Made by a program: the position numbers and the translations under genes. Source: Desulfocapsa sulfexigens DSM 10523 (lineage in GTDB: Bacteria > Desulfobacterota > Desulfobulbia > Desulfobulbales > Desulfocapsaceae). Taken from it: a DNA stretch of 32,000 nt. Below the pieces are notes generated by a model. The model ran no database searches, was not told the origin of the DNA, and saw nothing but the letters and a program-made list of their open reading frames with translations. Below, in pieces: positions 3,367 to 32,000 of the stretch (the first letter of the stretch is position 1; each line of letters begins with the position of its first letter). Location: NCBI RefSeq assembly GCF_000341395.1, contig NC_020304.1:3630001-3662000 (forward strand), written 5' to 3'.

Positions 3367-3513
3367 CATAAAATCCAATCCAATCACAGAGTCTTCATTC
3401 CTCTATGCGAGCAGATGAGGAGTTTTTTTTTACTAATTGGCCTGATATTATTAAGATGTTATCCTGTGGTGGATTAAAACAGTTATTCTATTTTTTTTCA
3501 GGCTTACTAAAAA

Positions 3514-4927: not shown

Positions 4928-7555
4928 TCAAGTATCCAGGCTTCTTCGCACCATCTCAAACACATCGCCTGAAAGTCCCTCCTTCTCAGCAATACGCTGT
5001 AGCTGCGCTTTCATTAACTTCTGCCGGACTGTGTCATATCGTTTCCACGTCGAAAACGGTGTGGTCAATCGTGAAGCGATCTGAGGGTTGCGCGAATCCA
5101 GGTCGATAATCTGATCAGCCAGAAAACAATACCCCTCCCCCTTCGAATTGTGAAAAGCAACATGATTACCACCGAAGGCACCTATAAGAGAACGTACCTT
5201 ATTGGGATTGGAGATAGAAAATGCAGGGTGATGCATCAAATCCTTAACCGATGCAAGTGTGGATGGCAGGCTTGAGCTGGCCTGAAGGATAAGCCACTTA
5301 TCCATGACCAGCACATCATCCTTCCATTTTTCATAGAAATTCTGAAGTAGTTCCCCGCGTTCAGGGATATCACAGTGACTCATGGCCGAGAGGACGGCAA
5401 TGACATCGGTCATATTATTGCCATTCTCATACTGTTCCATGGCCATATCCACGTCACTCTGGTCAGGTCGCTCCCCTGCAAGCAAATAGGAAAGAGCGAC
5501 GTTTTGCAACCGTCTCCGGCCCATTGCTTCAGATGTCAGTTCATACTCTCCTCTGTTTGTATTTCCCTCCCAAACCGCTCTGAATTCCGCCTGAAGGAGA
5601 TTAGCCAGTTCCCGGCGGACAAACCTTCTGGCGAGATGCAGATTGTCAGGATCGATCACCTTCATCTGCTGGGCAAGATAATTTTCCTCAGGCAAACTAA
5701 GTGCCATTCCAAGTAGCGATTTATCACTTTCCCTATCCGTCAGTATTCGTCTCACGGCATCAATAAATAACGGGTCAAGAACCGCCTGGCGATTCTGCTG
5801 CAGGACACTGGTGAGTTCCAGGATCACAGATTCACTGAGACGAAATGATGCATCCCAGCGATTAAAAGGATCGGAATCGTTGGCCATAAGAAAGGCAAGC
5901 TGTTCACGGCTCTGCCATGGTTCGACTTTCACCGGAGCCGAAAATCCACGCAGCAGCGAAAGAACCGGTTTTTCATGAATCCCCTCAAACGTGAAGGTTT
6001 CTTCCGCGCTTTTCAGCTCCAGTAGCGCGTTTTTTAGCTCCATATCATTGCCATTGCTGTCAAGAAGCCCAAAGGATATTGGGATGTGAAAAGCTTTTTT
6101 ATCTTCCATACTTTGACTTGGCGTGGAGGGACAGCGCTGGGAAAGTGTTACCTTGTACCGTTGCCCTTCAACGTCCCATTCTTCGGTGACTGTAAGCTCG
6201 GGTGTCCCCGCCTGGCTATACCAGAGTTTGAATTGATCAAGATCAACGTCGGAGGCTGTTGCCATGGCTGATACAAAATCATCACAGGTCACCGCCTGAC
6301 CGTCGTGCCGCTTAAAATACAGATCAATCCCTTTGCGGAAATCTTCAGCCCCAAGCAGAGTGTGCATCATACGGATAACCTCAGCACCCTTATTGTACAC
6401 GGTCACGGTATAAAAATTATTAATCTCCAGATAGGAATCAGGCCGGACAGAATGAGCCATGGGGCCTGAGTCCTCACGAAACTGAAAACTGCGCAGGACG
6501 CGAACATCTTCAATTCGCTGGACTGGTCGAGAATTCATGTCAGATGAAAACTCCTGATCCCGAAATACGGTAAGGCCTTCCTTCAGACTGAGCTGGAACC
6601 AGTCCCGGCAGGTTACCCTGTTGCCGGTCCAGTTATGAAAATATTCATGGGCTATCACCCCTTCCACACCAAGATAATCCTGATCCGTTGCCGTCTCGGG
6701 GCTTGCCAGGACATATTTGGAATTAAAGACATTGAGCCCCTTATTCTCCATGGCACCCATATTGAAATCGTCGACCGCAACTATCATATAGGTATCCAGA
6801 TCATATTCAAGACCGAACACCTCTTCATCCCAGGCCATACTTTTCTTGAGAGAGGTCATGGCGTGACCGCATTTTTCACGATTTTTTGCCTCCACGTAGA
6901 TGCGCAGATCAATCCTGCGCCCGGAGCATGTTGTGAATTCATCCTGGATAAAAATAAGATCCCCAGCCACAAGGGCAAAGAGATAACACGGTTTAGGGAA
7001 AGGATCCTCCCATACTGCAAAATGACGGCCGCCTTCAAGCATCCCCTCTTCGACAAGATTCCCGTTTGACAGAAGAACCGGGCAATCGACAATATCACCT
7101 TCGATACGAGTAACAAACCGTGCCATAACATCGGGCCTGTCGAGATAATAGGTTATCTTACGAAAGCCCTCCGCCTCGCACTGGGTACAGAAGTTACCGC
7201 TGGAACGATATAATCCTTCAAGCGCTGTGTTTTTGTCGGGGTAGATCCTGGTACTGACCTCAAGAACAAAGCTATCCGGCATATCAATAAGAACCATGCC
7301 TTTTCCCTCGAGTCGATACCGGGAGGCAGGCAATTCGCTTCCATCTACTGCCACAAAGAGCAACTCGAGATTTTCACCATTGAGGAAAAGCTCATTACTG
7401 TTGCTCTTCGCTTCTTGATTCCTCTGAAAAACAGATTTCGCCTTCACCACACAATCTTTTTTCCCTAGTATAAAATTCAGGTTGAGATCAGTTATAAGAA
7501 AATCTGGTACCCGATAGTCCTTGCGATAAATAGTTGAATGCTCAGTGTTTGACAT
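4928..7555 (-). CDS. pepN: Aminopeptidase N (M1 family zinc metallopeptidase)
   Basis: 875 aa with the GAMEN exopeptidase motif and HEYFHNWTGNRVTCRDWFQLSLKEGLTVF (HEXXH-18-E zinc site). SD-like AAGGGAAAAA precedes the ATG. Confidence 0.95.
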   Translation of the reverse strand: MSNTEHSTIYRKDYRVPDFLITDLNLNFILGKKDCVVKAKSVFQRNQEAKSNSNELFLNGENLELLFVAVDGSELPASRYRLEGKGMVLIDMPDSFVLEVSTRIYPDKNTALEGLYRSSGNFCTQCEAEGFRKITYYLDRPDVMARFVTRIEGDIVDCPVLLSNGNLVEEGMLEGGRHFAVWEDPFPKPCYLFALVAGDLIFIQDEFTTCSGRRIDLRIYVEAKNREKCGHAMTSLKKSMAWDEEVFGLEYDLDTYMIVAVDDFNMGAMENKGLNVFNSKYVLASPETATDQDYLGVEGVIAHEYFHNWTGNRVTCRDWFQLSLKEGLTVFRDQEFSSDMNSRPVQRIEDVRVLRSFQFREDSGPMAHSVRPDSYLEINNFYTVTVYNKGAEVIRMMHTLLGAEDFRKGIDLYFKRHDGQAVTCDDFVSAMATASDVDLDQFKLWYSQAGTPELTVTEEWDVEGQRYKVTLSQRCPSTPSQSMEDKKAFHIPISFGLLDSNGNDMELKNALLELKSAEETFTFEGIHEKPVLSLLRGFSAPVKVEPWQSREQLAFLMANDSDPFNRWDASFRLSESVILELTSVLQQNRQAVLDPLFIDAVRRILTDRESDKSLLGMALSLPEENYLAQQMKVIDPDNLHLARRFVRRELANLLQAEFRAVWEGNTNRGEYELTSEAMGRRRLQNVALSYLLAGERPDQSDVDMAMEQYENGNNMTDVIAVLSAMSHCDIPERGELLQNFYEKWKDDVLVMDKWLILQASSSLPSTLASVKDLMHHPAFSISNPNKVRSLIGAFGGNHVAFHNSKGEGYCFLADQIIDLDSRNPQIASRLTTPFSTWKRYDTVRQKLMKAQLQRIAEKEGLSGDVFEMVRRSLDT

Positions 7556-18693: not shown

Positions 18694-18750
18694 ATTACAC
18701 ATAAAATCCCCCTCCTAATCAAAACGAAAAAAAGGCTTTCTGAAAAATAA

Positions 18751-19644
18751 ATGACATCAAACAACAAAGGGCTTTTTGCAGCATTGGGAGCCTTCACAAT
18801 ATGGGGTCTGCTTCCTCTCTACTGGAAGGCACTCTCTTCCGCTATTCCCCTGGAGATTATATGTCACCGCATCACCTGGTCAACACTTGTAACCCTACTG
18901 CTTTTGGTCATGTGGGGAAAAGTCGGCAAGCTCCGCACAGTTCTCAAGAACAGGAAAATTTTACTGCGTTTTGCCCTCACCTCGCTTCTGCTCTCGACAA
19001 ACTGGCTTCTATACATATGGGCAGTAAACAACAACTATATCGTTGAATCCAGCCTTGGATACTATATAAACCCATTGATCAATGTCCTGCTGGGAGTCCT
19101 TTTCCTTAGAGAACGCCTCCGAGTGCCACAGTGGGTTGCTGTTTTTTTTGCATTTGCCGGGGTATGCTATCTCACCTTCGGTTATGGCCAGTTCCCATGG
19201 ATCGCCATTGTCCTCGCAGTGACCTTCGGTTTTTATGGTTTACTGCGTAAAACTGCAAGTATCCCCTCTCTGGAAGGGCTCTGTCTCGAGACTTCTCTCC
19301 TCTTTCTCCCGGCATTTCTGTTCCTGCTTTACCTGACCATTCAAGGAGAGTTTGATTTTGTGAAGCAGAGTATTGATGGCAAAATTCTATTGATCGGTAC
19401 CGGAATCGTCACCACTATGCCACTCCTTTTCTTTGGCTATGCTGCACAGAAAATTCAACTTTCAACACTTGGAGTTGTCCAATACCTTGCCCCAACACTA
19501 CAACTGAGCATTGGACTCTTTGTTTATAATGAACCTTTCCCCCGAGAACAGATGATTGGCTTTGCACTGGTATGGTGTGGCCTGCTTATTTATGCAACGG
19601 AGGGCACTCTCATCCATATTCGAAAAACAAAGAGGAGGCTATAA
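18751..19644 (+). CDS. rarD: EamA/DMT-family transporter RarD
   Basis: 297 aa with 10 predicted TM helices. The N-terminus KGLFAALGAFTIWGLLPLYWKAL is typical of RarD. Confidence 0.85.
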   Translation: MTSNNKGLFAALGAFTIWGLLPLYWKALSSAIPLEIICHRITWSTLVTLLLLVMWGKVGKLRTVLKNRKILLRFALTSLLLSTNWLLYIWAVNNNYIVESSLGYYINPLINVLLGVLFLRERLRVPQWVAVFFAFAGVCYLTFGYGQFPWIAIVLAVTFGFYGLLRKTASIPSLEGLCLETSLLFLPAFLFLLYLTIQGEFDFVKQSIDGKILLIGTGIVTTMPLLFFGYAAQKIQLSTLGVVQYLAPTLQLSIGLFVYNEPFPREQMIGFALVWCGLLIYATEGTLIHIRKTKRRL

Positions 19645-19700: not shown

Positions 19701-19958
19701 TTAGCGTTTTCGGCTACCACCACGCCTTTGTTTTGTACCGCTTCCATCTTCCATTGCATTGGCTGGCCGTCTACTATACTGCTGGCATTCTGCACGGAAA
19801 GCATTTCGCTCTTCCTCGCTTGCCTTTTGCATAGTACCTCGCGAGCTGTTTAGTTCTTCATTAGTTTTGCTTGAATAATCAGTAACTGCCCATACTGGTG
19901 CTGCTACCATGAGTACCATGGTCAATATCAGTGTTTTTTTAGGGATCTTGCGTGTCAT
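19701..19958 (-). CDS. Small secreted protein (85 aa), function unknown
   Basis: Start moved to the ATG at 19958 with a strong SD (GGAGGAAAAAT). Signal peptide MTRKIPKKTLILTMVLMVAAPVWA, then a helical charged segment NEELNSSRGTMQKASEEERNAFRAE and a basic tail. Confidence 0.55.
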   Translation of the reverse strand: MTRKIPKKTLILTMVLMVAAPVWAVTDYSSKTNEELNSSRGTMQKASEEERNAFRAECQQYSRRPANAMEDGSGTKQRRGGSRKR

Positions 19959-20024
19959 ATTTTTCCTCCATAATATTTGTGAATACAAGGCTCCAATCGG
20001 CCCTTATGGTGAGTTGAAAAATGA

Positions 20025-21579: not shown

Positions 21580-22845
21580 CTACTTCAATATTTTAGCTTT
21601 CGCTTCTTTGTATTTGAGAAGAACAGCAAGAGCAGGTTTTATGAGCATAGTCACCACCAAAGCACCTGTAGCCAAAACTCCCAGAGTAATAAGAATCTCA
21701 TTACTGGTCGGGGCGTAATCAACAACCTCACCCATTGGCGATGGCACAAAACCAGGGATAATAAGACCAAAACCTTTTTCAATCCAGATACCGGTGAACA
21801 GGCTTATCGCTGCTACCATGAGGTAACGGGGATTGCCTTTAGTCGGATCAAAGGCAAAAAGCAGTGTCCCTATAATGTTTAGACTAATAGCCGTCCATAT
21901 CCATGGCACAAGAGAATTGTGTCCTTCAAGCCCGAAGAAAAGGTATTGAGCCGAAAGGCTGTGATGGGTAAATGTATAGAATTCCTTAAATACTTCAGAA
22001 AAAAGCATCAGCAGATTAATGACTGCCGAAACAACGATGATTCTTTTTAATTTTAAGAAAATCTGTTCGTCAACCGAATATTTCGTGTTCTGTTTTATGG
22101 CAATGAGCACCACCATAATTACCGCAGGGCCTGCAGCAAATGCCGAAGCCAGAAAGCGCGGACCGAGCAATGGGTTGTTCCAGAAAGGGCGAGCCGGCAA
22201 TCCCTGGTAGAGAAAAGCTGTGGTCATGTGGATGGAAACAGCCCAGAAGATGGACAGGAAAACAAAGGGTTTATACTTCCAGCCGACAGGTTCTCTGTTA
22301 TGATAGTTGCAATAAAGAATGTAGAGAGGTACCAGGCTGTTTAAAGCTAAATAACCATTCAAAACAAGCATATCCCAGGTAAGAATAGATGAAGGCCAGT
22401 TAAACAGGCCTATTCCAGGAATCATGTGCCACACCTTCAACGGCCCGCCCATATCCACAGTGATAAACATCAGGCACATGACCAGAGCACCGACAGCGAC
22501 ACATTCACCTATAATAACGACTTCATGCAGATCTTTATCTTTCAGCATATAAGCTGGCAGGATCAGCATGACTGCAGCCGCCGCAACACCAACAAAAAAA
22601 GTAAAGTTGGAGATATAAAGGCCCCAACTGACAATATCCGACATACCGGTGATAATGAGGCCTTCCTGAAACTGCCTGGTATAGGAAAATGCACCCACGG
22701 CCATAACTGCAAGTAGAGCAATAATGTAAATTTTGAAACCTATCCCCCCGGACAGCGACCATCGCATACAGTCCGAGATAAATGAACGTCCTTGATTGGG
22801 GTTCGTAGTCATCGTTTTTTCCTTAGCGTCTCTTCGTACAGACAT
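21580..22845 (-). CDS. NrfD/PsrC-family polytopic membrane subunit (putative quinol-interacting anchor)
   Basis: 421 aa with about 10 TM helices, no Cys motifs and no haem motifs. Sits directly downstream of a Tat-exported 4-cluster Fe-S subunit, as in the Nrf/Psr/Ttr/Qrc/ACIII families. An alternative start is the ATG at 22812, which has a better SD (AAGGAAAAAACG). Confidence 0.8.
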   Translation of the reverse strand: MSVRRDAKEKTMTTNPNQGRSFISDCMRWSLSGGIGFKIYIIALLAVMAVGAFSYTRQFQEGLIITGMSDIVSWGLYISNFTFFVGVAAAAVMLILPAYMLKDKDLHEVVIIGECVAVGALVMCLMFITVDMGGPLKVWHMIPGIGLFNWPSSILTWDMLVLNGYLALNSLVPLYILYCNYHNREPVGWKYKPFVFLSIFWAVSIHMTTAFLYQGLPARPFWNNPLLGPRFLASAFAAGPAVIMVVLIAIKQNTKYSVDEQIFLKLKRIIVVSAVINLLMLFSEVFKEFYTFTHHSLSAQYLFFGLEGHNSLVPWIWTAISLNIIGTLLFAFDPTKGNPRYLMVAAISLFTGIWIEKGFGLIIPGFVPSPMGEVVDYAPTSNEILITLGVLATGALVVTMLIKPALAVLLKYKEAKAKILK

Positions 22846-22871
22846 TTTTTGTCTCTTTTAACCCGTTGTTG

Positions 22872-23831
22872 TCAATCCATGAAATACCAGAATTTTGGAT
22901 CAGTCCCCAATTCTTCCTTAAAGCGGAAAACCTTCTTGTTTTTCAGGACAAAACGGATTTCGCTGTCTGGATCAAGAAGATTGCCAAAAACCCTGGAACC
23001 TGTTGGACAGGCCTCGGCACAGGCCGGCAGCTTGCCCTGACGGGTTCTCTGCACGCAAAAAGTGCATTTTTCCATGACGCCTTTCATCCGCATGCGATTA
23101 CCGAGATAATGCTGTTTTCTATTTATCTCCTCTTCCGGCACTTCAGGCGTACCCCAGTTAAAACGGCGCCCCCAATATGGACAAGCTGCCAGGCAATAGC
23201 GGCAACCGATACACCAGTCGTAATCCACAACAACGATGCCATCCGGTTCTCGCCAGGTAGCTTTGGTCGGGCAGGCTTTAATACACGGGGCATTTTCACA
23301 ATGGTAGCATTGGACTCCCATGTAAAACTTATCAGCAACCGGCACTTCATGATGATATTTCCCATCTCCTGAAGTTGGATCAAGTTGACCGGAATCCATT
23401 TCAAAAAGACGGATATATTGGGTCTTTGATTTACGGTCAAGATTGTTTTCTTGAACACATGCCTCAACGCAATCCATATAGCCCTTGCAACGGGAGATAT
23501 TAAAGGCATAGCCGTAAAGGACATTTTCACGTGGCTCTGCGTTTGACATTTGAATGTCTCTGTCGTCCTTCATTTTGGCAAGTCTTACAAGGCGGGCAAC
23601 GGTTTCATCTTTTTCTTTCTGACTCATCAGCCTGTAATTCTTTTTAAAATACTCTTCCCACTTGAGTCCCATTTCTTCGGTATTTCCAAGCGATCCGCAA
23701 CCTCCGGTCACAAGTCCTGCCGAACCAGCTGCAGCGGCAATGGACAGACCCTTTATGAAAGATCTACGGCTGATTTTCTTTTCACCGTTTTCTGGTTTCA
23801 TCATCCCTTCTTTTTTTTTGCTGGAATTCAT
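22872..23831 (-). CDS. Tat-exported ferredoxin-type Fe-S subunit (NrfC/PsrB/QrcC-like)
   Basis: Twin-arginine signal SRRSFIKGLSIAAAAGSAG. Cys motifs are CKGYMDCVEAC (second Cys replaced by Tyr), CYHCENAPCIKACP, CIGCRYCLAACP and CTFC...CAEACP. A G8 run serves as the SD region 1 nt upstream of the ATG. Confidence 0.88.
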   Translation of the reverse strand: MNSSKKKEGMMKPENGEKKISRRSFIKGLSIAAAAGSAGLVTGGCGSLGNTEEMGLKWEEYFKKNYRLMSQKEKDETVARLVRLAKMKDDRDIQMSNAEPRENVLYGYAFNISRCKGYMDCVEACVQENNLDRKSKTQYIRLFEMDSGQLDPTSGDGKYHHEVPVADKFYMGVQCYHCENAPCIKACPTKATWREPDGIVVVDYDWCIGCRYCLAACPYWGRRFNWGTPEVPEEEINRKQHYLGNRMRMKGVMEKCTFCVQRTRQGKLPACAEACPTGSRVFGNLLDPDSEIRFVLKNKKVFRFKEELGTDPKFWYFMD

Positions 23832-23839
23832 ACCCCCCC

Positions 23840-24457
23840 CTACTTGTCTAATGGCAGCGAGTATGTCACCGGCATTTTTTTTTCAAAGGCAGGGGAATGT
23901 GGACTATGACAACTTGTACAATTGCGCACCACCCTTTCACCAGCCCAGTATGCCTCACGTTTACCATGAGCGCCGCCTAACCAGTCACGCTTCTGGCGAA
24001 AATGACACTGACCACAGAGTTGATAACTGTGATCAAAATCTATCTTCTTGCCCTCGGCATCAGAAAGAGAATCTCGGTCGTTTTCATCGTGACATTCTAT
24101 ACAAGACAGCTTGTCGCCTCCCCTTCCGTGGTTGATTTCGATATCACTATGGGTAAAAAGAGCACCGTCTCTTATCAGCACATTCTTCTCAGTATGGCAG
24201 ACGCTGCATCGAAACTTTGTTATGGAATCCTTGCGGGCAAGTACTCTAAAAGTACCTCCCTGGTAGGATTCTTTTGCACGAACCGTCTTAACCGGCAGTT
24301 CATAGGCTGTTTCAATTTTCATGTTATTAAATGGCTCTTCTGCGGCATTAATGCGGTCCATCACAGAATTTTCAGAAGCCATAACAAACGGACATGAAAG
24401 AAGGAACGTTCCCAGCAAAAGAAAAAACAGGCTAGAACGCAAAAATATTTTTTTCAT
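23840..24457 (-). CDS. Periplasmic tetrahaem cytochrome c (paired-CXXCH type)
   Basis: Start set at the ATG at 24457 (MKKIFLRSSLFFLLLGTFLLSCPFVMA signal peptide); the track start at 24541 overlaps the upstream gene. Has four CXXCH motifs: CSVCH, CIECH, CGQCH, CTSCH. The last pair sits in the CGQCH...W.GGAHG...CTSCHSPH doubled-CXXCH arrangement. Confidence 0.85.
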   Translation of the reverse strand: MKKIFLRSSLFFLLLGTFLLSCPFVMASENSVMDRINAAEEPFNNMKIETAYELPVKTVRAKESYQGGTFRVLARKDSITKFRCSVCHTEKNVLIRDGALFTHSDIEINHGRGGDKLSCIECHDENDRDSLSDAEGKKIDFDHSYQLCGQCHFRQKRDWLGGAHGKREAYWAGERVVRNCTSCHSPHSPAFEKKMPVTYSLPLDK

Positions 24458-24474
24458 AACTGTTCTCGTTCTGA

Positions 24475-25128
24475 TTAGTTGTTTCTGATAAATTCTTCTC
24501 TGGGTTCGGTAGCTATCATGGGCACATGACATTGTCGGCAATTGCCGCGGGAGGCGTGCTCAACCCGAATCTCTGCCACTGCGGCATTGCCTGTATGACA
24601 GGCAATACAGTCTTCCCTGAGCTGCAGACTGTGGATAATCGGTGGTGGTGATCCACCCATCTCAGACCTTCCCAGCGGAGGAGGATTTATTGACTGCCAG
24701 TCGGTTTCCACAAAAAGCTCCTCAGTCAACCGTGGAACATGGCATTGAAAACAATTCTCATATTCAGGATGAGGCGTAACGGGAGCATAGGCTTCCTGAG
24801 TGATGTCGTATCCTCCTTTGCCGTGGCAGGAGAGGCATTTCAGGGTGTCCCCGGAAAAAGAGGTCGGGACATCATGGGGAACCCGCGGCGGTGAACCGGG
24901 ATACTGACGGAGTTGGTAATACGTATTTAAGGTTCGCTTGCCGTCTGTCCCGGTCATGGCAGGCAGTGGAGTTTCGTTAAACCTGTTGAAGATTTTTTCG
25001 CCGTCTGAATCAAAGCCCTGGGCAATACCAGGCGCTGCATTTGCATACAGCACCAGAGAGGCTCCGGTTAAGCAGATAGCGGCAAAACCTGTAACAACTC
25101 TGCCGAGTACTGTATCTGCTTTTTTCAT
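24475..25128 (-). CDS. napB: NapB-like cytochrome c, tandem duplicated (tetrahaem)
   Basis: The start ATG at 25128 overlaps the napA stop (TAATG), and GGAGAAAG lies upstream. Sec signal MKKADTVLGRVVTGFAAICLTGASLVLYANA. Contains two successive NapB-type units: SPPRVPH...CLSCH...HPEYENCFQCHVP and SPPPIIH...CIACH...HASRGNCRQCHVP. Confidence 0.8.
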   Translation of the reverse strand: MKKADTVLGRVVTGFAAICLTGASLVLYANAAPGIAQGFDSDGEKIFNRFNETPLPAMTGTDGKRTLNTYYQLRQYPGSPPRVPHDVPTSFSGDTLKCLSCHGKGGYDITQEAYAPVTPHPEYENCFQCHVPRLTEELFVETDWQSINPPPLGRSEMGGSPPPIIHSLQLREDCIACHTGNAAVAEIRVEHASRGNCRQCHVPMIATEPREEFIRNN

Positions 25129-27446
25129 TATGCTTTCTCCAGACGGACTGCACATTTTTTATAATCAGGCTGCTTTGATATCGGGCAAAAAGCATCCAGG
25201 GTCAATTCGTTAATCTTGTAGGATTCATCAAAAAACGGCACAAAGACCGTACCCCGGGGAGGCACACCGCGCCCGTTTATGGAAGCTTTCATGGTCACCG
25301 AGCCTCGCCGTGAAATAATTTTCACCTTTTCGCCGTTCACCACACCTATATCAGCTGCATCCTCGGGGTTCATTTCCACATAGGATTCAGGCATGGCATT
25401 ATGGAGAACAGGAATCCGCCGGGTCATGGACCCGGTATGCCAGTGCTCGATGACCCGGCCGGTATTGAGCCAGAAATTGTATTCATTGTCCGGTGATTCA
25501 GCGGCAGGCTCATAGGGTCGGGCCCATATCCATGCTTTTCCGTCTTTTCTGCCGTAGAAATCAAATTCTGTTCCCGGCTTGCAGGCGGGATCATGCTGGG
25601 TGTTAAAGCGCCAGCGAGTCTCCTTGCCGTTGACAAAAGGCCATTGTACTCCGGGGCGTTCTCTCAGCACCTTATAGGGGGCCATGTTGTGTTTCGGGCC
25701 ATCATGGAAGAGCCTGTACTCCTCCCATATTTTACCGATATACTCATCTTCACTCCAGGGGAACTGCTTCTGGAAACCAAGTCTCCTGGCAACCTCGATA
25801 AGCTGCCAGGTATCGGACATGGTGTCGCCAGGGCCCGGAACAATCCGGTCAAAATGAGCAGTACGACGTTCAGCGTTACCAAACATACCCTCCTGCTCAA
25901 TCCACATGGTTGCCGGCAGAATGACATCGGCGACATCAGTGGTCGGAGTGGGATAGACTTCTGAAACAACGATAAAGCGTTCATCTTTCAAAACGCCATT
26001 ACGATACCGATTCAGATTTGGCATGGTAATCATAGGGTTGGTCACCTGTATCCACATAAACTTGATGTCGCCACGATCCAGGGCGCGGAACATCTCCACC
26101 GTATGATAGGTGGGCTTGGGATCGATATTTGTTACCGGCACATCCCAGATCCTGGCAGCCATTTCCCTGTCGTGCTCATTCGTAACGACCCCATGAGGTA
26201 AGGCGTGGGTCAGAGTTCCTACTTCGCGGACAGTGCCACAGGCACTGGGTTGGCCAGTGAGAGAGAAGGGACTGTTGCCGGGGGTAGATATCTTGCCGGT
26301 GAGCAGATGGATATTGTAAACGAGGTTCTGGATCCAGGTTCCCCGCACATGCTGGTTCATTCCCATACACCAAAAAGAGGTGACTTTCTTGGTAGGGTCA
26401 CCGTACAGGGATGCTAGGTATTTTATATCTTTGGCAGATACCCCGGAGATTTTTTCCGCCTTTTCAGGTGTATAGTCCTGCAAGAACGTCTTGTACTCTT
26501 CAAAAGTGATATTTTCAGGTGCATCCGTGAAACTGAAATGATCTTCAGTGCCATAGCCGATATTGGTTTTGCCTTTATGAAAGGTGGTATGCTTGTTGAC
26601 GAAATCCCAGTTTACCCAGTTGTTACGGATGATTTCGTAACAGATGGCATTGGCAACAGCAAGATCTGTGCTGGGTTTGAAGAGAATCGATTTGTCGGCC
26701 GCCTGGCTGGTTCTGGTGGTACGGGTGGCAAAGTCGATAATAGTGACATTGTTTTTGCGCTTACGGCTGGCCAGCATCCTGGAAAAAAGAACAGGATGCA
26801 TTTCCGCCATATTATTACCCCAGGTAACAAAAACATCAGCGTGCTCAATGTCTTCATAACAGCCCATAGGTTCATCAATACCAAAGGAAGTCATAAAACC
26901 GGTTACAGCGCTCGACATACAAAGCCTGGCATTAGCTTCAACATTGTTGGTGCCGAGGCAGCCCTTGAAGAGCTTGGAGGCCACATAGCCATCCGGAATG
27001 GTCCATTGGCCTGAACCATACATGGCAACTGAATCTTTACCGTGCTTTGCAATGGTTTCCTTGACCTTGTCGGCAATGACATCCAGTGCTTCAGAAATGG
27101 GAACTTCAACCATTTTCCCATTCTTGCGAATCTGGGCTTTTTTAATGCGGTCTTTGCCATACAGAGCCTGAACGGAATGAAATCCTTTCACGCAACATAA
27201 CCCTTTATTTACACTGCAATTTGGATCACCTTTAACTGCAACGGCACGGTCTCCGGACACACCGACCAATACACCGCACCCTGTGCCGCAAAAACGGCAG
27301 GGAGCTTTTTGCCAGGTTATTTTACCCGATGCATCTTCCTGTTTCTGCCAACCAGCAAAACTAATACCAGGGAAAATTGATCCGGCAGCTGCAATGGCAC
27401 TGCTGGCTGCGGCTGACTTAATGAATGATCGTCTGTTTAGCTTCAT
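25128..27446 (-). CDS. napA: Periplasmic nitrate reductase catalytic subunit NapA (Mo-bisPGD, 4Fe-4S)
   Basis: Tat signal MKLNRRSFIKSAAASSAIAAAGS. WQKAPCRFCGTGCGVLVGV...GDPNCSVNKGLCCVKG is the N-terminal 4Fe-4S motif. GSGQWTIPDGYVASKLFKG...NARLCMSSAVTGFMTSFGIDEPMGCYEDIE aligns closely with my memory of E. coli NapA, including the Mo-ligand Cys. 772 aa, i.e. the short 'monomeric-type' length. Confidence 0.93.
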   Translation of the reverse strand: MKLNRRSFIKSAAASSAIAAAGSIFPGISFAGWQKQEDASGKITWQKAPCRFCGTGCGVLVGVSGDRAVAVKGDPNCSVNKGLCCVKGFHSVQALYGKDRIKKAQIRKNGKMVEVPISEALDVIADKVKETIAKHGKDSVAMYGSGQWTIPDGYVASKLFKGCLGTNNVEANARLCMSSAVTGFMTSFGIDEPMGCYEDIEHADVFVTWGNNMAEMHPVLFSRMLASRKRKNNVTIIDFATRTTRTSQAADKSILFKPSTDLAVANAICYEIIRNNWVNWDFVNKHTTFHKGKTNIGYGTEDHFSFTDAPENITFEEYKTFLQDYTPEKAEKISGVSAKDIKYLASLYGDPTKKVTSFWCMGMNQHVRGTWIQNLVYNIHLLTGKISTPGNSPFSLTGQPSACGTVREVGTLTHALPHGVVTNEHDREMAARIWDVPVTNIDPKPTYHTVEMFRALDRGDIKFMWIQVTNPMITMPNLNRYRNGVLKDERFIVVSEVYPTPTTDVADVILPATMWIEQEGMFGNAERRTAHFDRIVPGPGDTMSDTWQLIEVARRLGFQKQFPWSEDEYIGKIWEEYRLFHDGPKHNMAPYKVLRERPGVQWPFVNGKETRWRFNTQHDPACKPGTEFDFYGRKDGKAWIWARPYEPAAESPDNEYNFWLNTGRVIEHWHTGSMTRRIPVLHNAMPESYVEMNPEDAADIGVVNGEKVKIISRRGSVTMKASINGRGVPPRGTVFVPFFDESYKINELTLDAFCPISKQPDYKKCAVRLEKA

Positions 27447-27468: not shown

Positions 27469-27708
27469 TTATTGTTCAACTTTAGCATTATGACCAAAAG
27501 TCATGCTCAGTGATTGTAGTGAAGGCAGGCTCTTAAGCGTTTTATGCAGTTTTTTTTCGGTTTCTTCATCAGGAGTCTCCGTCACGAGAATCACTACCTC
27601 TGCATTGTCCGATGGAATAATTTCGCAATAATCAATAGCGGACAGATCCAAACATAATTGATCCATGGCACCCTTATTGGGCAACGCCAGATAACTTAAA
27701 ATTGGCAT
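27469..27708 (-). CDS. napD: NapD-like Tat proofreading chaperone
   Basis: Start moved to the ATG at 27708 (AAAAAGGAGAAAGA upstream); the track start is a GTG at 27747. 79 aa, immediately upstream of napA. The pattern ...CEIIPSDNAEVVILVTETPDEE...LKSLPSLQSLSMTFGH fits the NapD beta-alpha-beta fold pattern. The family is poorly conserved, so the call relies largely on position and size. Confidence 0.65.
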   Translation of the reverse strand: MPILSYLALPNKGAMDQLCLDLSAIDYCEIIPSDNAEVVILVTETPDEETEKKLHKTLKSLPSLQSLSMTFGHNAKVEQ

Positions 27709-27810
27709 TCTTTCTCCTTTTTCCTGATCAATGGTTACCAACTGCACTCTGCAAATACTTCATTCGGCAAAACACTACGTAATTGCCTCACAACTAATGC
27801 TCACAGAATT

Positions 27811-27826
27811 AGCAACATTCATGCCA
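27811..27826 (-). promoter_or_regulatory. Candidate sigma54 (-24/-12) promoter reading into napD-napA
   Basis: The minus strand reads TGGCATGAATGTTGCT, against the consensus TGGCAC-N5-TTGCW with correct GG-to-GC spacing. It lies about 100 nt upstream of the napD ATG (27708). Confidence 0.55.
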
Positions 27827-27922
27827 TACCACCATGTGCCACCCAACAAGGCCAGTAAAACCCTTTTTACCTAAGGATATTATGCGCCACCCAATATCTA
27901 TCCGTTAATTTTTTCGTAAAAC

Positions 27923-27973
27923 ATGTTACCTCAAGGTAACATCCTCTTGTCGATATGTTACTTTTCGGTAAAT
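27923..27973. promoter_or_regulatory. Perfect palindrome plus a repeated half-site (candidate activator/UAS sites)
   Basis: ATGTTACC-TCAA-GGTAACAT (27923-27942, 8-bp perfect arms). A second, imperfect copy ATGTTAC-N6-GTAAAT lies at 27955-27973, 32 bp (about 3 helical turns) away. Both sit roughly 100-150 bp from each of the two sigma54-like elements. Confidence 0.45.
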
Positions 27974-28044
27974 AAAAAAAAACCATACGCTGTCTCGGCT
28001 ATATACAAACCCTGTACAATGCGGAACAGTGATCTCCTCCTGTA

Positions 28045-28076
28045 AGCTACTTTCCAGAGTAGCTGTGTCACGTGAC
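28045..28076. promoter_or_regulatory. Two further inverted repeats just upstream of the plus-strand -24 element
   Basis: AGCTACT-ttccag-AGTAGCT (28045-28064) and the perfect 10-bp palindrome GTCACGTGAC (28067-28076), which ends 18 bp before TGGCAT at 28094. Confidence 0.35.
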
Positions 28077-28093
28077 TGTGACATTGGTAGCAC

Positions 28094-28109
28094 TGGCATT
28101 AGTCTTGCC
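28094..28109 (+). promoter_or_regulatory. Candidate sigma54 (-24/-12) promoter reading toward the regulator/tup genes
   Basis: TGGCATTAGTCTTGCC matches TGGCAC-N5-TTGC with correct spacing. It lies about 230 nt upstream of the ATG at 28341. A sigma70-like TTGTCA (28229-28234) with an N17-19 AT-rich -10 candidate also exists closer to the gene. Confidence 0.45.
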
Positions 28110-28340
28110 GTCGCCAGACAAGCAAAAATGTGGCAACAGACGGATAAATTGTCCAAATACAGTTGCCATCATTAAGTCATCCTCTCAGGATATGAAAAAA
28201 AGATGCACAGCCAATTCAATATCCATATTTGTCACTTTTGGTTATTGTAGGTTTATATGAGTTTTTTTCTACCATTCATTGGTGTTATCGGACCTGAAGG
28301 TGTAATCAGTAACAACAACCAAAAGGGGGCTCCAGTAAGC

Positions 28341-29273
28341 ATGAAAACAGTTTCAAAATTCCTCACCACAAAAGACGTGGCCCAGCTTCTCAATGTAAAC
28401 GAGAAGATGATCTACTCCCTTGTTAACGACAAGGGGCTCCCGGCAACAAAAGTTACTGGAAAATGGTTATTTCCAAGAAGACTTGTGGAAGATTGGCTCG
28501 ATTCACATATCCTTAACTTTAGGTGCTCACACGACACCCTCTCATCCAATAACGGCCTCTTACTTCTTGCCGGAAGCGACGACCCGCTTTTCCAGAAAAC
28601 GCTTTCCCTTTTTCATAAAAAATACAGTGATACTATTGCCTTTTTTGCAAATCAGGGAAGCATGGGTGGTCTCACCAGCCTGAGAAGAGGTCTCTGCCAC
28701 ATCGGTGTTTGCCATCTCCTCGAAAATGAAGAGAATGAGTACAACTTCAGTTTTGCCGAGCAGGAGCTGGACAAGCCCCCGGTTTTTGTCAATTTCAGTA
28801 AACGTGAACAGGGTATCCTCATCCAAAAAGGAAACCCTAAGGGTATTCAATCAATCAATGATTTCTCCAGAAATGACGTCAGAATCGTTAACCGCCCCTT
28901 AAGCACAGGAACAAGACTGCTCCTCGACTATGAGATTTCCAGGTCAGATATCGCTTCAGCTGATATTGATGGCTACGATGTAGAACTCGCACGCCACATA
29001 GATGCTGGGCTTGAGGTTTTGTCAGGAAGGGCAGATGCAGCCCCTGCCATCCGCGCTGTTGCTGGCATGCTGGGGCTTGATTTTATCCCTCTGCGCTGGG
29101 AACGATTTGACTTGCTAATAAATCGAGAACGATTCTTTGAAAAAGGTATTCAACGCTTCATCAGCCTTCTGCATGAAAGGGAGTTCCGTCAATTGGCCAA
29201 TTCCTTTGAAGGCTATGACGTATCGCTTTGTGGAAAAATGCTTTTCCCGGACAATCTTAACAACGAGGAATGA
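28341..29273 (+). CDS. Transcriptional regulator: excisionase/MerR-type HTH fused to a cytoplasmic periplasmic-binding-protein-like (oxyanion-binding, COG1910-like) domain
   Basis: Start set at the ATG at 28341 (AAAAGGGGG upstream); the track start at 28257 sits inside a promoter-like AT-rich stretch. HTH: FLTTKDVAQLLNVNEKMIYSLVNDKGLPATKVTGKWLFPRRLVEDWL. C-terminal domain: LLLAGSDDP...GSMGGLTSLRRGLCHIGVCHL...REQGILIQKGNPKGIQSINDF...VNRPLSTGTRLLLD...GRADAAPAIRAVAGMLGLDFIPL. No signal peptide. Confidence 0.8.
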   Translation: MKTVSKFLTTKDVAQLLNVNEKMIYSLVNDKGLPATKVTGKWLFPRRLVEDWLDSHILNFRCSHDTLSSNNGLLLLAGSDDPLFQKTLSLFHKKYSDTIAFFANQGSMGGLTSLRRGLCHIGVCHLLENEENEYNFSFAEQELDKPPVFVNFSKREQGILIQKGNPKGIQSINDFSRNDVRIVNRPLSTGTRLLLDYEISRSDIASADIDGYDVELARHIDAGLEVLSGRADAAPAIRAVAGMLGLDFIPLRWERFDLLINRERFFEKGIQRFISLLHEREFRQLANSFEGYDVSLCGKMLFPDNLNNEE

Positions 29274-29275
29274 AA

Positions 29276-30172
29276 ATGGTATCACGAATCACAGCATTTG
29301 CAGGGGTCTTAGTTCTCTTATTTGCTATTAACTCAAACAGTATGGCTGAGGACAAGATTTTAAAGATGTCCACCACTACAAGTACCCAGTCATCAGGGCT
29401 TTTAGATATCCTTTTACCTGAATTTGAAAAAGCAACAGGCATAAAAGTGAAGGTTATCGCCAAAGGAACAGGGGCAGCCATACGTGATGGTGAGGATGGT
29501 AATGTGGATATTATCTTTGTCCATGCCAAGGGACGTGAGCTTGCCTTTGTTAAAGATGGCTTCGGCACTGAACGCTTTCCGGTAATGCATAATGATTTTG
29601 TGCTGTTAGGTTCATCAAAAGATCCGGCAGGGATTAAAGATTTTGCTGATATCGCAACTGTTTTTAAAACCATTGCTGAGAAAAAAGCGACCTTCGTCTC
29701 CAGGGGAGACGATTCAGGGACCCATACTAAAGAGCAGAAGCTCTGGGCTGACAGTGGCATTACAATGGTTGAAAAGACCCAAAGCATCGTAAAAAAAGGC
29801 CAGGAGACAAAAATTACTTCCAACTTTCCAGCAGACTCGGCAAGCTGGTATCTTTCCATTGGCCAGGGAATGGGTAAAGTACTCACCTACGCTGAAGAAA
29901 AACAGGCCTACACCCTCTCTGATCGGGGAACTTATATCAAATACAAATACGGCAAAACCCCCGCTCTTGAACTTGATATCCTGAGCCAGGGTGATACAAG
30001 ACTTGCAAACCCTTATGGTATCATCCCGGTTAACCCGGCAAAACACCCCCATGTAAAAAACGATCTGGCCATGGCTTTTGTTGAATGGATCACCGGACCA
30101 GAAGGACAAAAACTTATCGGTGACTATCGTCTCGAAGGAAAACAGCTTTTCTTCCCCGATGCCATCAAATAG
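29276..30172 (+). CDS. tupA: Tungstate/molybdate ABC transporter substrate-binding protein TupA
   Basis: Signal peptide plus the TupA signature MSTTTSTQSSGLLDILLPEFEK (TTTS motif), then VHAKGRELAFV and RGDDSGTH. Two in-frame ATGs exist: 29270 overlaps the regulator stop, while 29276 has GAGGA 6 nt upstream and is preferred. Confidence 0.88.
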   Translation: MVSRITAFAGVLVLLFAINSNSMAEDKILKMSTTTSTQSSGLLDILLPEFEKATGIKVKVIAKGTGAAIRDGEDGNVDIIFVHAKGRELAFVKDGFGTERFPVMHNDFVLLGSSKDPAGIKDFADIATVFKTIAEKKATFVSRGDDSGTHTKEQKLWADSGITMVEKTQSIVKKGQETKITSNFPADSASWYLSIGQGMGKVLTYAEEKQAYTLSDRGTYIKYKYGKTPALELDILSQGDTRLANPYGIIPVNPAKHPHVKNDLAMAFVEWITGPEGQKLIGDYRLEGKQLFFPDAIK

Positions 30173-30198
30173 AAAAACCTTGCATCATCTCTAAAAAT

Positions 30199-30235
30199 AA
30201 GGGAGAAGTGATGTTTTGCTTCTCCCTTTTTTTAT
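30199..30235 (+). terminator. Rho-independent terminator/attenuator between tupA and tupB
   Basis: Perfect 10-bp stem AAGGGAGAAG (30199-30208) / CTTCTCCCTT (30219-30228) with a 10-nt loop. The thymines continue past the stem into a TTTTTTT run (30227-30233). Confidence 0.7.
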
Positions 30236-30331
30236 AGGAACCAGGGGCCTGCAAGTACTGTTTTACCCCCTATGCTTTACCTAATAAACAGCAGTTTACT
30301 ATTGTTTTCTATCCCATCACAAAAGAACTGA

Positions 30332-31036
30332 ATGGATCTCCTCTTTGACAGTATACAATCTGCAATTGCCCTTCTTCTGACGCGTGACCCTGAGTTACTC
30401 AACATAGTCTGGGTATCCGTGAAAGTCAGTGCTTTATCCACGGTTATAGCCTCACTTGCAGGTATTCCCGGAGGATTCCTCATTGCCTATTCCGAGTTTT
30501 ATGGAAAACGGCTGCTCCTTACTTGCCTTAACACCTTACTGGCACTTCCTACGGTGGTTATAGGTCTTCTGGTCTACTCCTTTATTTCACGGCGTGGAAT
30601 ACTCGGACCAATGGAACTTCTCTATACCCAGAAAGCCATAATTATCGGCCAGGTCATTTTAATTGTCCCCCTTATCTGCTCCTTAACCATTGCAGCTATC
30701 AGCAGGATAGATACCCGCTATCGAAAGACAGCTCTCACCCTTGGGGCAACACAAAAGCAGATGGCCCTGGTGATCATTAAAGAAGCCCGTTATGGCATTG
30801 GCGCTGCTGTTATTGCTGCATTTGGTAGAGTCATAGCCGAAGTTGGAATCAGCATGATGCTTGGAGGAAATGCCAAAGGCTTTACCCGCACCATGACTAC
30901 AGCCATGGCCCTTGAATATGACAAAGGTGAATTTGTCCTGTCCGTGGCCCTTGGTCTTACACTCATGAGCATAGCTTTTGCAGTAAATATGCTCTTCCAT
31001 TTTTTTCAGGGAAGGACCAGGGTCGATGCTGTATAA
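30332..31036 (+). CDS. tupB: Tungstate/molybdate ABC transporter permease TupB
   Basis: 234 aa with 5-6 TM helices and an ABC permease EAA-like loop (KTALTLGATQKQMALVIIKEARYGI). Position between tupA and the ATPase gene. Confidence 0.85.
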   Translation: MDLLFDSIQSAIALLLTRDPELLNIVWVSVKVSALSTVIASLAGIPGGFLIAYSEFYGKRLLLTCLNTLLALPTVVIGLLVYSFISRRGILGPMELLYTQKAIIIGQVILIVPLICSLTIAAISRIDTRYRKTALTLGATQKQMALVIIKEARYGIGAAVIAAFGRVIAEVGISMMLGGNAKGFTRTMTTAMALEYDKGEFVLSVALGLTLMSIAFAVNMLFHFFQGRTRVDAV

Positions 31037-32000
31037 AATCCGTAAAATGACAAAGACTTTTAAGAATCGGACGATATTAAATCTTGAACAACTCGATATC
31101 GAGAAGGGAAAGATCTATGCTCTCGTTGGTGCAAATGGCGCTGGAAAGACAACCCTTCTCAACATCCTGTCATTTCTCGACAAACCCCATACAGGACAGC
31201 TTGATTTTTGTGGAGAACCGGTTCTGTACGGCAACCACCAACTCCTGAAACTCAGACGCAAGGTTGTCCTCCTTGACCAATACCCCATACTCTTCACAGG
31301 ACCAGTATGGAAAAATATAGAATTTGGCCTCAAGGTCCGATCCATTCCCAGAGCGCAATGCAAAAAACGTGTTGAGGAAGTCCTCAATCTTGTTGGGATG
31401 GGGGATTTTTTCCATGCAGAAGGTCATAAACTTTCCGGTGGAGAGACCAAACGAGTAGCTTTGGCCAGAGCACTGGCAATAGAGCCTGAAGTACTCCTCT
31501 GTGATGAACCAACAGCAAATGTGGACGCTGAAAATCAGGCAATCATCCTGAACATTTTACAGCAGATTAACTCTGAGCAAAAAACTTCGATTATCTTTGC
31601 CACTCACTACCTCTCCCAGATGCGAAGGCTGGCCAGCCATACCCTTACCCTGGAACATGGCCATCTCTCACAGCAAAAGAAAGAAAATAGCTATACCTGT
31701 ACCGTGATAACCAGAAAAGAGAATGGACTGCTCTGTTATCTCAATGACGCAGTTTCTCTTTTTTTTGCCGGGAATAGTCATCCAGAAGTAGAAAAAGGTA
31801 CAAAAATCCACATAGACCCACTCAGAATTTCCATTGGTAAATCAAAAAACAGTCTTGCAGAAAACACACTGCGGGGAGTTGTCGTTAAGATTGAACAAAA
31901 TAACACTCTCATTCGAATTGACATGGATTGTGGTTTACGAATACGTGTTGTACTGACAAAAGACGAATACCGTGACCTTCAGCCACAGGTAGGTGAGAAA
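31026..32000 (+). CDS. tupC: ABC transporter ATP-binding protein TupC with C-terminal TOBE/Mop-like domain (3' end cut by window)
   Basis: Not in the ORF track because it runs off the window; read directly from the sequence. ATG at 31026 overlaps the tupB stop; an alternative ATG is at 31047. Walker A GANGAGKTT, signature LSGGETKR, Walker B LLCDEPTA. Then NTLRGVVVKIEQNNTLIRIDMDCGLRIRVVLTKDEYRDLQPQVGEK, a typical TOBE pattern. Confidence 0.85.
   Translation, partial: MLYKIRKMTKTFKNRTILNLEQLDIEKGKIYALVGANGAGKTTLLNILSFLDKPHTGQLDFCGEPVLYGNHQLLKLRRKVVLLDQYPILFTGPVWKNIEFGLKVRSIPRAQCKKRVEEVLNLVGMGDFFHAEGHKLSGGETKRVALARALAIEPEVLLCDEPTANVDAENQAIILNILQQINSEQKTSIIFATHYLSQMRRLASHTLTLEHGHLSQQKKENSYTCTVITRKENGLLCYLNDAVSLFFAGNSHPEVEKGTKIHIDPLRISIGKSKNSLAENTLRGVVVKIEQNNTLIRIDMDCGLRIRVVLTKDEYRDLQPQVGEK

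Follow-up and report, generated by a model that had tools for sequence, protein, structure and literature searches.

The 633-bp region between napD and the regulator gene of a tup-like operon in Desulfocapsa sulfexigens DSM 10523 raises the question of whether a single sigma-54 control region serves two divergent operons, one for nitrate reductase (nap) and the other for molybdenum/tungsten (Mo/W) uptake. The region lies in the window, that is, the whole stretch of 32,000 nucleotides analysed here (contig NC_020304.1, positions 3,630,001 to 3,662,000 of the forward strand), and an earlier note on this DNA had proposed that two outward-facing -24/-12 elements control nap and tup from it. The reading favoured here, with a probability of about 0.72 on the sequence comparisons given below, is that the region contains an enhancer-dependent sigma-54 promoter for nap, and that the plus-strand element facing tup is more likely non-functional or only weakly functional.

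Both 16-mers were found where they had been reported, TGGCATGAATGTTGCT on the minus strand (27826 to 27811) and TGGCATTAGTCTTGCC on the plus strand (28094-28109). Both keep the invariant GG and GC dinucleotides at the exact consensus spacing (GG-N10-GC), as had been stated; in the nap-facing element these are GG at 27825-27824 and GC at 27813-27812. The elements do face outward, and the distance of 268 bp agrees with the coordinate count between their facing T residues, with 267 nt between the two 15-nt arms. The longer pattern TGGCAC-N5-TTGCW holds for the nap site, which ends in TTGCT, and not for the last base of the tup-side site, which ends in TTGCC. The flanking genes had also been correctly identified, with napD-napA on the minus strand and the regulator followed by a TupA-like ABC transporter on the plus strand.

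The occurrence of the exact core (TGGCA-N6-TTGC) was compared with several expectations. Three copies are present in the window, the third at 5706 to 5692 in pepN. The previous estimate of 0.25 copies by chance was too low, since dinucleotide shuffles predict 0.55 copies per window and the density measured in 2.75 Mb (both strands) of related real DNA, 0.0138 per strand-kb, corresponds to 0.88 per window. With three cores against 0.88 expected (Poisson P of about 0.06 for at least three), the bare count is not remarkable, and the probability that one core falls by chance on a given strand of the 633 bp between napD and the regulator gene is about 0.009. Scanning the window with a sigma-54 position weight matrix (PWM), an approximation based on the published consensus whose bit scores are indicative only, gave the nap-facing site as the best one (16.3 bits) and the tup-facing site as the fourth (13.3 bits). 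The latter is outranked by two sites in coding sequence, one in pepN (5691-5706, minus strand, 15.2 bits) and the near-core site TGGTATTAGTTTTGCT at 27369 to 27354 (minus strand, 14.0 bits) in the signal-peptide region of napA (PGISFAG). Both internal sites are probably fortuitous, because neither has nearby palindromes of the kind described below.

Conservation of the nap-facing element was evaluated in 80 loci encoding close NapA relatives, mostly from metagenome-assembled genomes (MAGs) of Desulfobulbales and Desulfobacterales, with a best identity of 93%. The nap gene order is kept in these loci. A strong -24/-12 element (14.8-16.8 bits) was found upstream of napD in five of them (L001, L002, L003, L012 and L013) and a weaker one (11-12 bits) in two more (L004 and L006). 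In the window and in all seven of these loci, the site lies 334-593 bp upstream of napA. The spacer bases differ among the elements while GG and GC stay, and BLASTN at a word size of 7 detected no other similarity between the intergenic DNA of the window and the seven nap loci. With its position kept in seven nap loci, in DNA that cannot otherwise be aligned, and with paired palindromes upstream, the nap-facing element has strong support as a sigma-54 promoter and is very probably a real one. The nap transcript is predicted to start near 27800, about 92 nt 5' of the napD ATG at 27708, which is directly preceded by GGAGAAAG.

The palindromes, which had not been noticed before, precede the sigma-54 element in all eight of these nap loci (the window and the seven others) and follow the 16-bp consensus GTTACC-N4-GGTAAC. 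In the window, palindrome A, GTTACCTCAAGGTAAC, is a perfect 6-N4-6 inverted repeat that extends as ATGTTACC-N4-GGTAACAT over 27923-27942, while palindrome B, GTTACTTTTCGGTAAA, has two mismatches to the consensus and lies 32 bp from the first. In strain L163, about 98% identical to the window, the arms of palindrome A are intact and one spacer T is replaced by C. Approximately 1 Mb of fetched DNA contained 37 matches with up to two mismatches, 17 of them at 250-800 bp upstream of napA; 16 of these form eight tandem pairs, and the remaining one, in L009, is alone and has no sigma-54 element. Together with four loci linked to an activator gene and described below (L168-L171), the module of tandem palindromes and sigma-54 site is present in 12 loci (the window, L001-L004, L006, L012, L013 and L168-L171), with a tandem spacing of 32-34 bp from start to start in every one. 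Measured from the first base of the proximal palindrome, the -24 T is 66-70 bp away in eight loci, 114-115 bp away for the nap promoter of the window (114 bp) and in L013, and 134-135 bp away in L012 and L171. In the window, 114 bp separate the palindromes from the nap site, and 137 bp from that on the tup side, distances at which activator sites are typically found (70-150 bp).

Two other explanations bear on these observations. According to the first, both sigma-54-like elements would be due to chance and nap would be transcribed from a sigma-70 promoter, such as TTAACG-18-CATAAT at 27908 to 27879. This match fits the sigma-70 consensus at 9 of 12 positions, the sigma-54 core is not rare in real DNA (0.88 per window), and alternative promoters at nap and nrf have been suggested by Cadby et al. 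(PMC5701242). Against it, sigma-70-like matches show no excess (3 versus 2.4 in shuffles), and the -24/-12 element and the tandem palindromes are kept together in 12 loci whose DNA is otherwise unalignable, so that this explanation is very improbable.

In the second explanation, the palindromes would be operators of the adjacent HTH_17 and PBP_like regulator, responsive to Mo/W, and nap would be under metal-dependent control, as exerted by ModE at E. coli napF. The regulator gene does adjoin the palindromes in the window, and a weak third copy of the repeat lies upstream of its start, at 28227-28244. For comparison, 80 metagenomic loci encoding relatives of the regulator were fetched, of which about 57 closer ones extend at least 150 bp upstream of the regulator gene. 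A palindrome within 800 bp on that side is missing from all of these orthologous loci. Palindromes are present in the 11 other module-bearing loci, none with this regulator nearby, where they are always paired with a sigma-54 site and co-occur with kinase/activator genes. Operators of the neighbouring regulator are accordingly given only a very slight chance.

As the earlier note had stated, there is no enhancer-binding-protein gene in the window: scanning of the window proteins with Pfam and for motifs revealed no Sigma54_activat protein and no GAFTGA or Walker motif. A candidate activator was found in L080, in which the order is nrfH, nrfA, a single ATGTTACC-N4-GGTAACAT, a histidine kinase whose Tll0287-like sensor domain holds a CXXCH motif, a regulator with Response_reg, Sigma54_activat and HTH_8 domains, and napD-napA. 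Four long-contig loci (L168-L171) were then fetched via orthologues of this regulator (68-77% identity). The kinase/regulator pair directly adjoins a nap operon in all four, with nap operons of different types, and in each of them a sigma-54 site comes 66-68 or 134 bp after two palindromes with a spacing of 34 bp (downstream genes are given in Table 1). Orthologous activators adjoin nap in L080, L168-L171 and L174, and strong sigma-54 cores are found upstream of nrfH in L174 and L080. The best NCBIfam hits of the activator are AtoC and NtrC, both below their cut-offs. There is strong comparative evidence for the activation of the nap-facing promoter by an NtrC-type regulator, which would bind at the palindromes and respond to a presumed signal.

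In the proposed mechanism, sigma-54 RNA polymerase would bind the -24/-12 element at 27826 to 27811 and would be activated by looping from the two palindromes. The protein bound there would be an NtrC-family response regulator, whose partner would be a sensor kinase carrying a Tll0287-like domain (CXXCH haem) in the periplasm. The pair would be encoded outside the window; in related genomes it lies beside nap and nrfHA operons with the same module. It would represent the Desulfobulbales counterpart of NrfS-NrfR of Desulfovibrio, with nitrite or nitrate as the presumed signal for turning nap on. The plus-strand element would face regulator-tupABC because an 8.56-kb segment carrying nap adjoins these genes in this lineage only.

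Control of this kind has been described for Desulfovibrio. In D. vulgaris, the sigma-54-dependent NrfS-NrfR system is reported to activate nrfHA on nitrite, with 16-bp sites validated by gel shift (PMC6456213, PMC5701242), and in D. desulfuricans 27774, other Desulfovibrio and Bilophila the napCMADGH genes are preceded by tandem NrfR-type sites, GTCAT-N6-ATGAC, and by sigma-54 determinants (Cadby et al. 2017, PMC5701242). In the table of a 2025 review, nap and nrf are entered as targets activated by NrfS-NrfR. Since such control was already shown for nrfHA and predicted for nap in Desulfovibrio (PMC5701242, PMC6456213), a sigma-54-dependent nap operon is not a new logic, and the "distinct regulatory logic" claimed earlier was overstated.

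The module resembles NrfS-NrfR in its targets, lying upstream of nap in 11 loci including the window and of nrfHA in L169, in its sigma-54 promoter with two tandem 16-bp inverted repeats upstream, and in its NtrC-type response regulator with a partner kinase, often beside nrfHA (L080, L169 and L174). It differs in the operator, GTTACC-N4-GGTAAC, which does not fit the Desulfovibrio consensus GTCAT-N6-ATGAC; in the tandem spacing, 32-34 bp compared with about 20 bp as counted from Table S1 of PMC5701242; in the host order, Desulfobulbales; in the nap operon, napD-A-B-like-cytochrome-FeS-NrfD instead of napCMADGH; and in that no HcpR-type sites were identified here. By layout, the nap-facing element with its palindromes can be assigned to the NrfR-type (DVU0621) sigma-54 class. 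As far as the literature found shows, the operator itself appears to be previously undescribed.

Other known systems share some of these features. The classical enhancer-dependent sigma-54 promoter, glnAp2 with NtrC, has in common the GG-N10-GC element, paired dyad activator sites about 100 bp upstream, and an activator made up of receiver, AAA+ and HTH_8 domains, but it serves nitrogen assimilation and not respiratory nitrate/nitrite reduction. In E. coli hyc/hyp, divergent sigma-54 promoters share the activator sites of FhlA; two outward-facing -24/-12 elements flank activator sites here as well, although only one side is conserved and the second is lineage-specific and off the regulon consensus. 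The E. coli napF promoter (FNR/NarL/NarP/ModE, sigma-70) serves the same enzyme, with a link to nitrate/nitrite and Mo that is plausibly the same, while sigma factor, activator class and promoter architecture all differ.

For the tup-facing element, no sigma-54 site of at least 13 bits was found within about 600 bp upstream of the regulator start in any of the approximately 57 orthologous loci. Among the 12 enhancer-bearing loci, a site above 10.2 bits on the opposite strand exists in the window only. Conservation of both elements in orthologous regions, the check recommended earlier, was obtained for the nap-facing one (seven nap loci and four activator-linked loci) and not for the tup-facing one (0 of about 57 regulator loci and 0 of 11 other enhancer-bearing loci). 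The tup-facing element has T at position 7, C at 11 and C at 16; in the 13 promoters of the regulon, the bases there are R (13/13), T (10/13) and W (13/13). Background core matches mostly end in TTGCC, like this element, and many of them are GGCAA/TTGCC palindromes in coding DNA. The element is unchanged in L163, L164 and L166, and both elements are kept in L163-L167; since these strains are 97.5% identical to the window, this retention is uninformative.

The arrangement was compared with that of L081, the closest of the regulator loci. In a BLAST comparison, L081 1805-2704 corresponds to window 18744-19643 (an EamA gene) and L081 2866-6660 to window 28206-32000 at 97.5% identity, with no match between 19643 and 28206. 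In L081, the EamA gene is followed by 162 bp and then by the sequence matching the window from 28206 onward, with the regulator-tup operon, an adjacency found in L081 only. In the 8.56-kb segment that is present in the window and absent from L081 are a small open reading frame (ORF), HPP and CBS protein genes, the nap operon in full, the enhancer and the sigma-54 elements of both strands, of which that on the plus strand is about 100 bp from the right edge of the segment. Since this element lies within the missing segment, it is part of the nap segment rather than of the native upstream region of tup. Moreover, tup genes adjoin nap in none of the 80 NapA-relative loci, which indicates that only this lineage has nap and tup arranged divergently. 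In the 135 bp 5' of the regulator gene, common to L081, highly conserved tracts are retained, including a sigma-70-like match, TTGGTG-16-TGTAAT, so that the regulator probably has its own promoter. The regulator-tup operon may have its native promoter and operator in the tracts at 28235-28325.

The tracts conserved with L081 at 28235-28325 include a direct repeat, GGTGTTATC / GGTGTAATC, and a long-range complementary pair, CTTTTGGTTATTGT / ACAACAACCAAAAG.

The main competing explanation is that both elements are working sigma-54 promoters on one shared enhancer, by which nitrite or nitrate would co-induce nap and the regulator-Mo/W uptake operon. Both keep GG-N10-GC and the 9-base core, a core on the tup-facing strand has a chance probability of only about 0.009, no terminator was found between the plus-strand element and the regulator gene, and the palindromes between the two elements are symmetric, which favours function on the plus strand also. 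Their distances, 114 and 137 bp, were put within the 66-135 bp range of bona fide cases, the 137 bp being near the 134-135 bp class of L012 and L171. A connection with Mo supply is biologically sensible, since NapA needs a Mo cofactor and the nap operon of L169 is followed by moaA and moeA. These arguments are opposed by the orthologous regulator loci, about 57 including the 97.5%-identical L081, that have no plus-strand element; by the absence of a divergent site from the 11 other enhancer-bearing loci; by the three positions off the regulon pattern, with the background-like TTGCC end; by the two coding-sequence sites of the window that score equally or higher; and by the retention of a conserved putative native promoter region. 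Co-induction through two promoters is therefore considered doubtful. The tup-facing element by itself is given a similarly low chance, perhaps marginally better, of being a functional promoter, and it is more likely non-functional or weakly functional than a true second promoter. Of the shared nap/tup sigma-54 region proposed in the earlier note, the nap side is supported, while the tup side has no conservation support in the regulator loci; as a shared control region it is possible, and lineage-specific at best.

With the enhancer-dependent nap promoter as the preferred reading, some further observations weigh against it, besides those just given in favour of the plus-strand site. Five loci (L005, L007, L009, L010 and L011) are without the module despite 85-90% NapA identity to the window, from which the module was taken to be clade-restricted. 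In L080, there is no sigma-54 site before napD itself. A search for an activator gene in the window and in approximately 14 kb of additional flanking sequence gave none, and the sigma-54 scores come from an approximate PWM.

The assignment of the nap operon is based on NapA, which scores above the curated cut-off, and on the presence of the NapD chaperone (Table 1). The Pfam match of NapD is close to the threshold (29 versus a cut-off of 28), and five public contigs have the exact 79-aa product among their gene calls. The genes for the CBS and HPP proteins come after the NrfD/DsrP-like gene in the nap cluster, and the small ORF at 19701-19988, in the 8.56-kb segment, looks secreted.

Table 1. 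Coordinates of the features in the window, and genes downstream of the module in the four activator-linked loci.
Feature	Position	Strand	Basis or remark
Segment of 8.56 kb, present in window, absent from L081	19644-28205	unstranded	BLAST of L081 against window
nap operon body served by the promoter	21580-27446	minus	profile matches
NrfD/DsrP-like membrane subunit	22845-21580	minus	nap operon body
Fe-S protein with TAT signal	23831-22872	minus	nap operon body
Multihaem cytochrome	24541-23840	minus	nap operon body
NapB-like cytochrome c	25155-24475	minus	nap operon body
napA	27446-25128	minus	NCBIfam NapA equivalog, 990.5 bits against cut-off 904
napD	27469-27708	minus	first gene of nap operon; Pfam NapD
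Sigma-54 -24/-12 element of nap operon (very probable), TGGCATGAATGTTGCT	27811-27826	minus	exact core match, 16.3 bits
Palindrome A, GTTACCTCAAGGTAAC	27925-27940	unstranded	perfect 6-N4-6 inverted repeat
Palindrome B, GTTACTTTTCGGTAAA	27957-27972	unstranded	2 mismatches to consensus; 32 bp from palindrome A
Second sigma-54-like element, TGGCATTAGTCTTGCC	28094-28109	plus	exact core match, 13.3 bits; 137 bp from start of palindrome B
HTH_17 + PBP_like regulator	28341-29273	plus	Pfam; first gene downstream of plus-strand element
TupA-like binding protein	29270-30172	plus	NCBIfam TupA match
Permease	30332-31036	plus	ABC transporter of tup-like operon
ATPase	31026 onward, runs off the window at 32000	plus	ABC transporter
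Gene downstream of module, L168			regulator-napFDAGHB operon
Gene downstream of module, L169			nrfHA
Gene downstream of module, L170			napA
Gene downstream of module, L171			orf-napA

On the plus strand, the HTH_17 and PBP_like regulator is presumably TunR-like. Its true start is taken to be the ATG at 28341, since the in-frame ATG upstream, at 28257, is lost in L163, for which the gene caller gives a regulator of 310 aa. The binding protein reaches 252 bits with the TupA model, below the equivalog cut-off of 400, a match that does not fix specificity for tungstate versus molybdate.

With the proposed nap promoter, if correct, dissimilatory nitrate and nitrite reduction would be under sigma-54/enhancer control in Desulfobulbales as well as in Desulfovibrio; Desulfocapsa-like members of Desulfobulbales are common in sediments. 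The promoter would also add a new operator, GTTACC-N4-GGTAAC in tandem at 32-34 bp, tied by genomic co-occurrence to a haem-domain kinase and an NtrC-type regulator, and would provide a regulon signature for predicting the capacity for, and regulation of, nitrate/nitrite reduction (dissimilatory nitrate reduction to ammonium, DNRA) in MAGs. The scheme seems to be under-recognised, since a 2021 review on the control of nitrate respiration mentions neither RpoN nor NtrC (PMC8139620). The result is useful for annotating nitrate/nitrite reduction in Desulfobulbales and holds little surprise for the specialist. More tentatively, and with odds clearly against it, the joining of the nap segment to regulator-tupABC could have created a bidirectional sigma-54 enhancer by recent genome rearrangement, with one nitrite/nitrate-sensing activator driving both nitrate reductase and Mo/W uptake. 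Were the second element to fire, the rearrangement would have wired the uptake of a cofactor metal to the enzyme that needs it.

Some additional features and candidates were recorded around these subjects. A further palindrome copy, GTTACCTCATGGTAGC (nap strand), lies at 21812-21827 in the 3' end of the NrfD/DsrP-like gene and is kept at the same offset in L001, L002, L003 and L080. It may reflect coding constraint or an internal regulator site; a second promoter within the nap cluster was rejected, since no sigma-54 site of at least 9 bits follows this copy. The stretch from the enhancer to the nap -24 element also holds a 13-nt direct repeat, TTGGGTGGCRCAT (nap strand), at 27834-27846 and 27882-27894, 48 bp apart; one copy has a substitution in L163, and the repeat was not seen at the other nap loci. 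A site with one mismatch to the consensus of integration host factor (IHF) is located at 27895-27907, also between enhancer and nap promoter. A role of IHF was discarded, as the consensus matches showed no excess (36 versus 42 by chance).

On the tup side, a riboswitch and the remnant of a divergent gene were considered and rejected. An Rfam search of 27600-28500 (E up to 1) gave no match, and the 220-nt leader, with unremarkable folding (z = -0.45), shows neither a Moco riboswitch nor another known RNA. The small ORFs of L169 and L001 showed no similarity to the window downstream of the plus-strand element.

Other activator-linked arrangements were seen in the fetched loci. L169 (3400-16400) contains a compact nitrate/nitrite module in which a sensor kinase is followed, in this order, by an enhancer with its sigma-54 site, nrfHA, one lone palindrome, the activator gene, napFDAGHB, moaA and moeA. 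Another enhancer with a sigma-54 site (the latter at 3482, minus strand) points in the opposite direction in L169, toward two small ORFs without known domains. In eight metagenomic loci (L093, L094, L096, L097, L103, L104, L111 and L112), a divergent pair of histidine kinase and sigma-54 activator precedes the regulator-tup operon (at about 1-2700, with the regulator at about 3001). The activator is about 40% identical to the nap-linked one, and the intergenic region common to that pair and the operon showed no sigma-54 site.

Finally, just upstream of the plus-strand element, a dyad, AGCTACT-N6-AGTAGCT, was observed at 28045-28064, with one base of the left arm differing in L163, as well as a perfect 10-bp palindrome, GTCACGTGAC, at 28067-28076, unchanged in L163. 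In L161 and L165, both from sample SRR25712206, the assembly breaks in the napD-regulator intergenic region, and the contig ends overlap at about 28009-28035.

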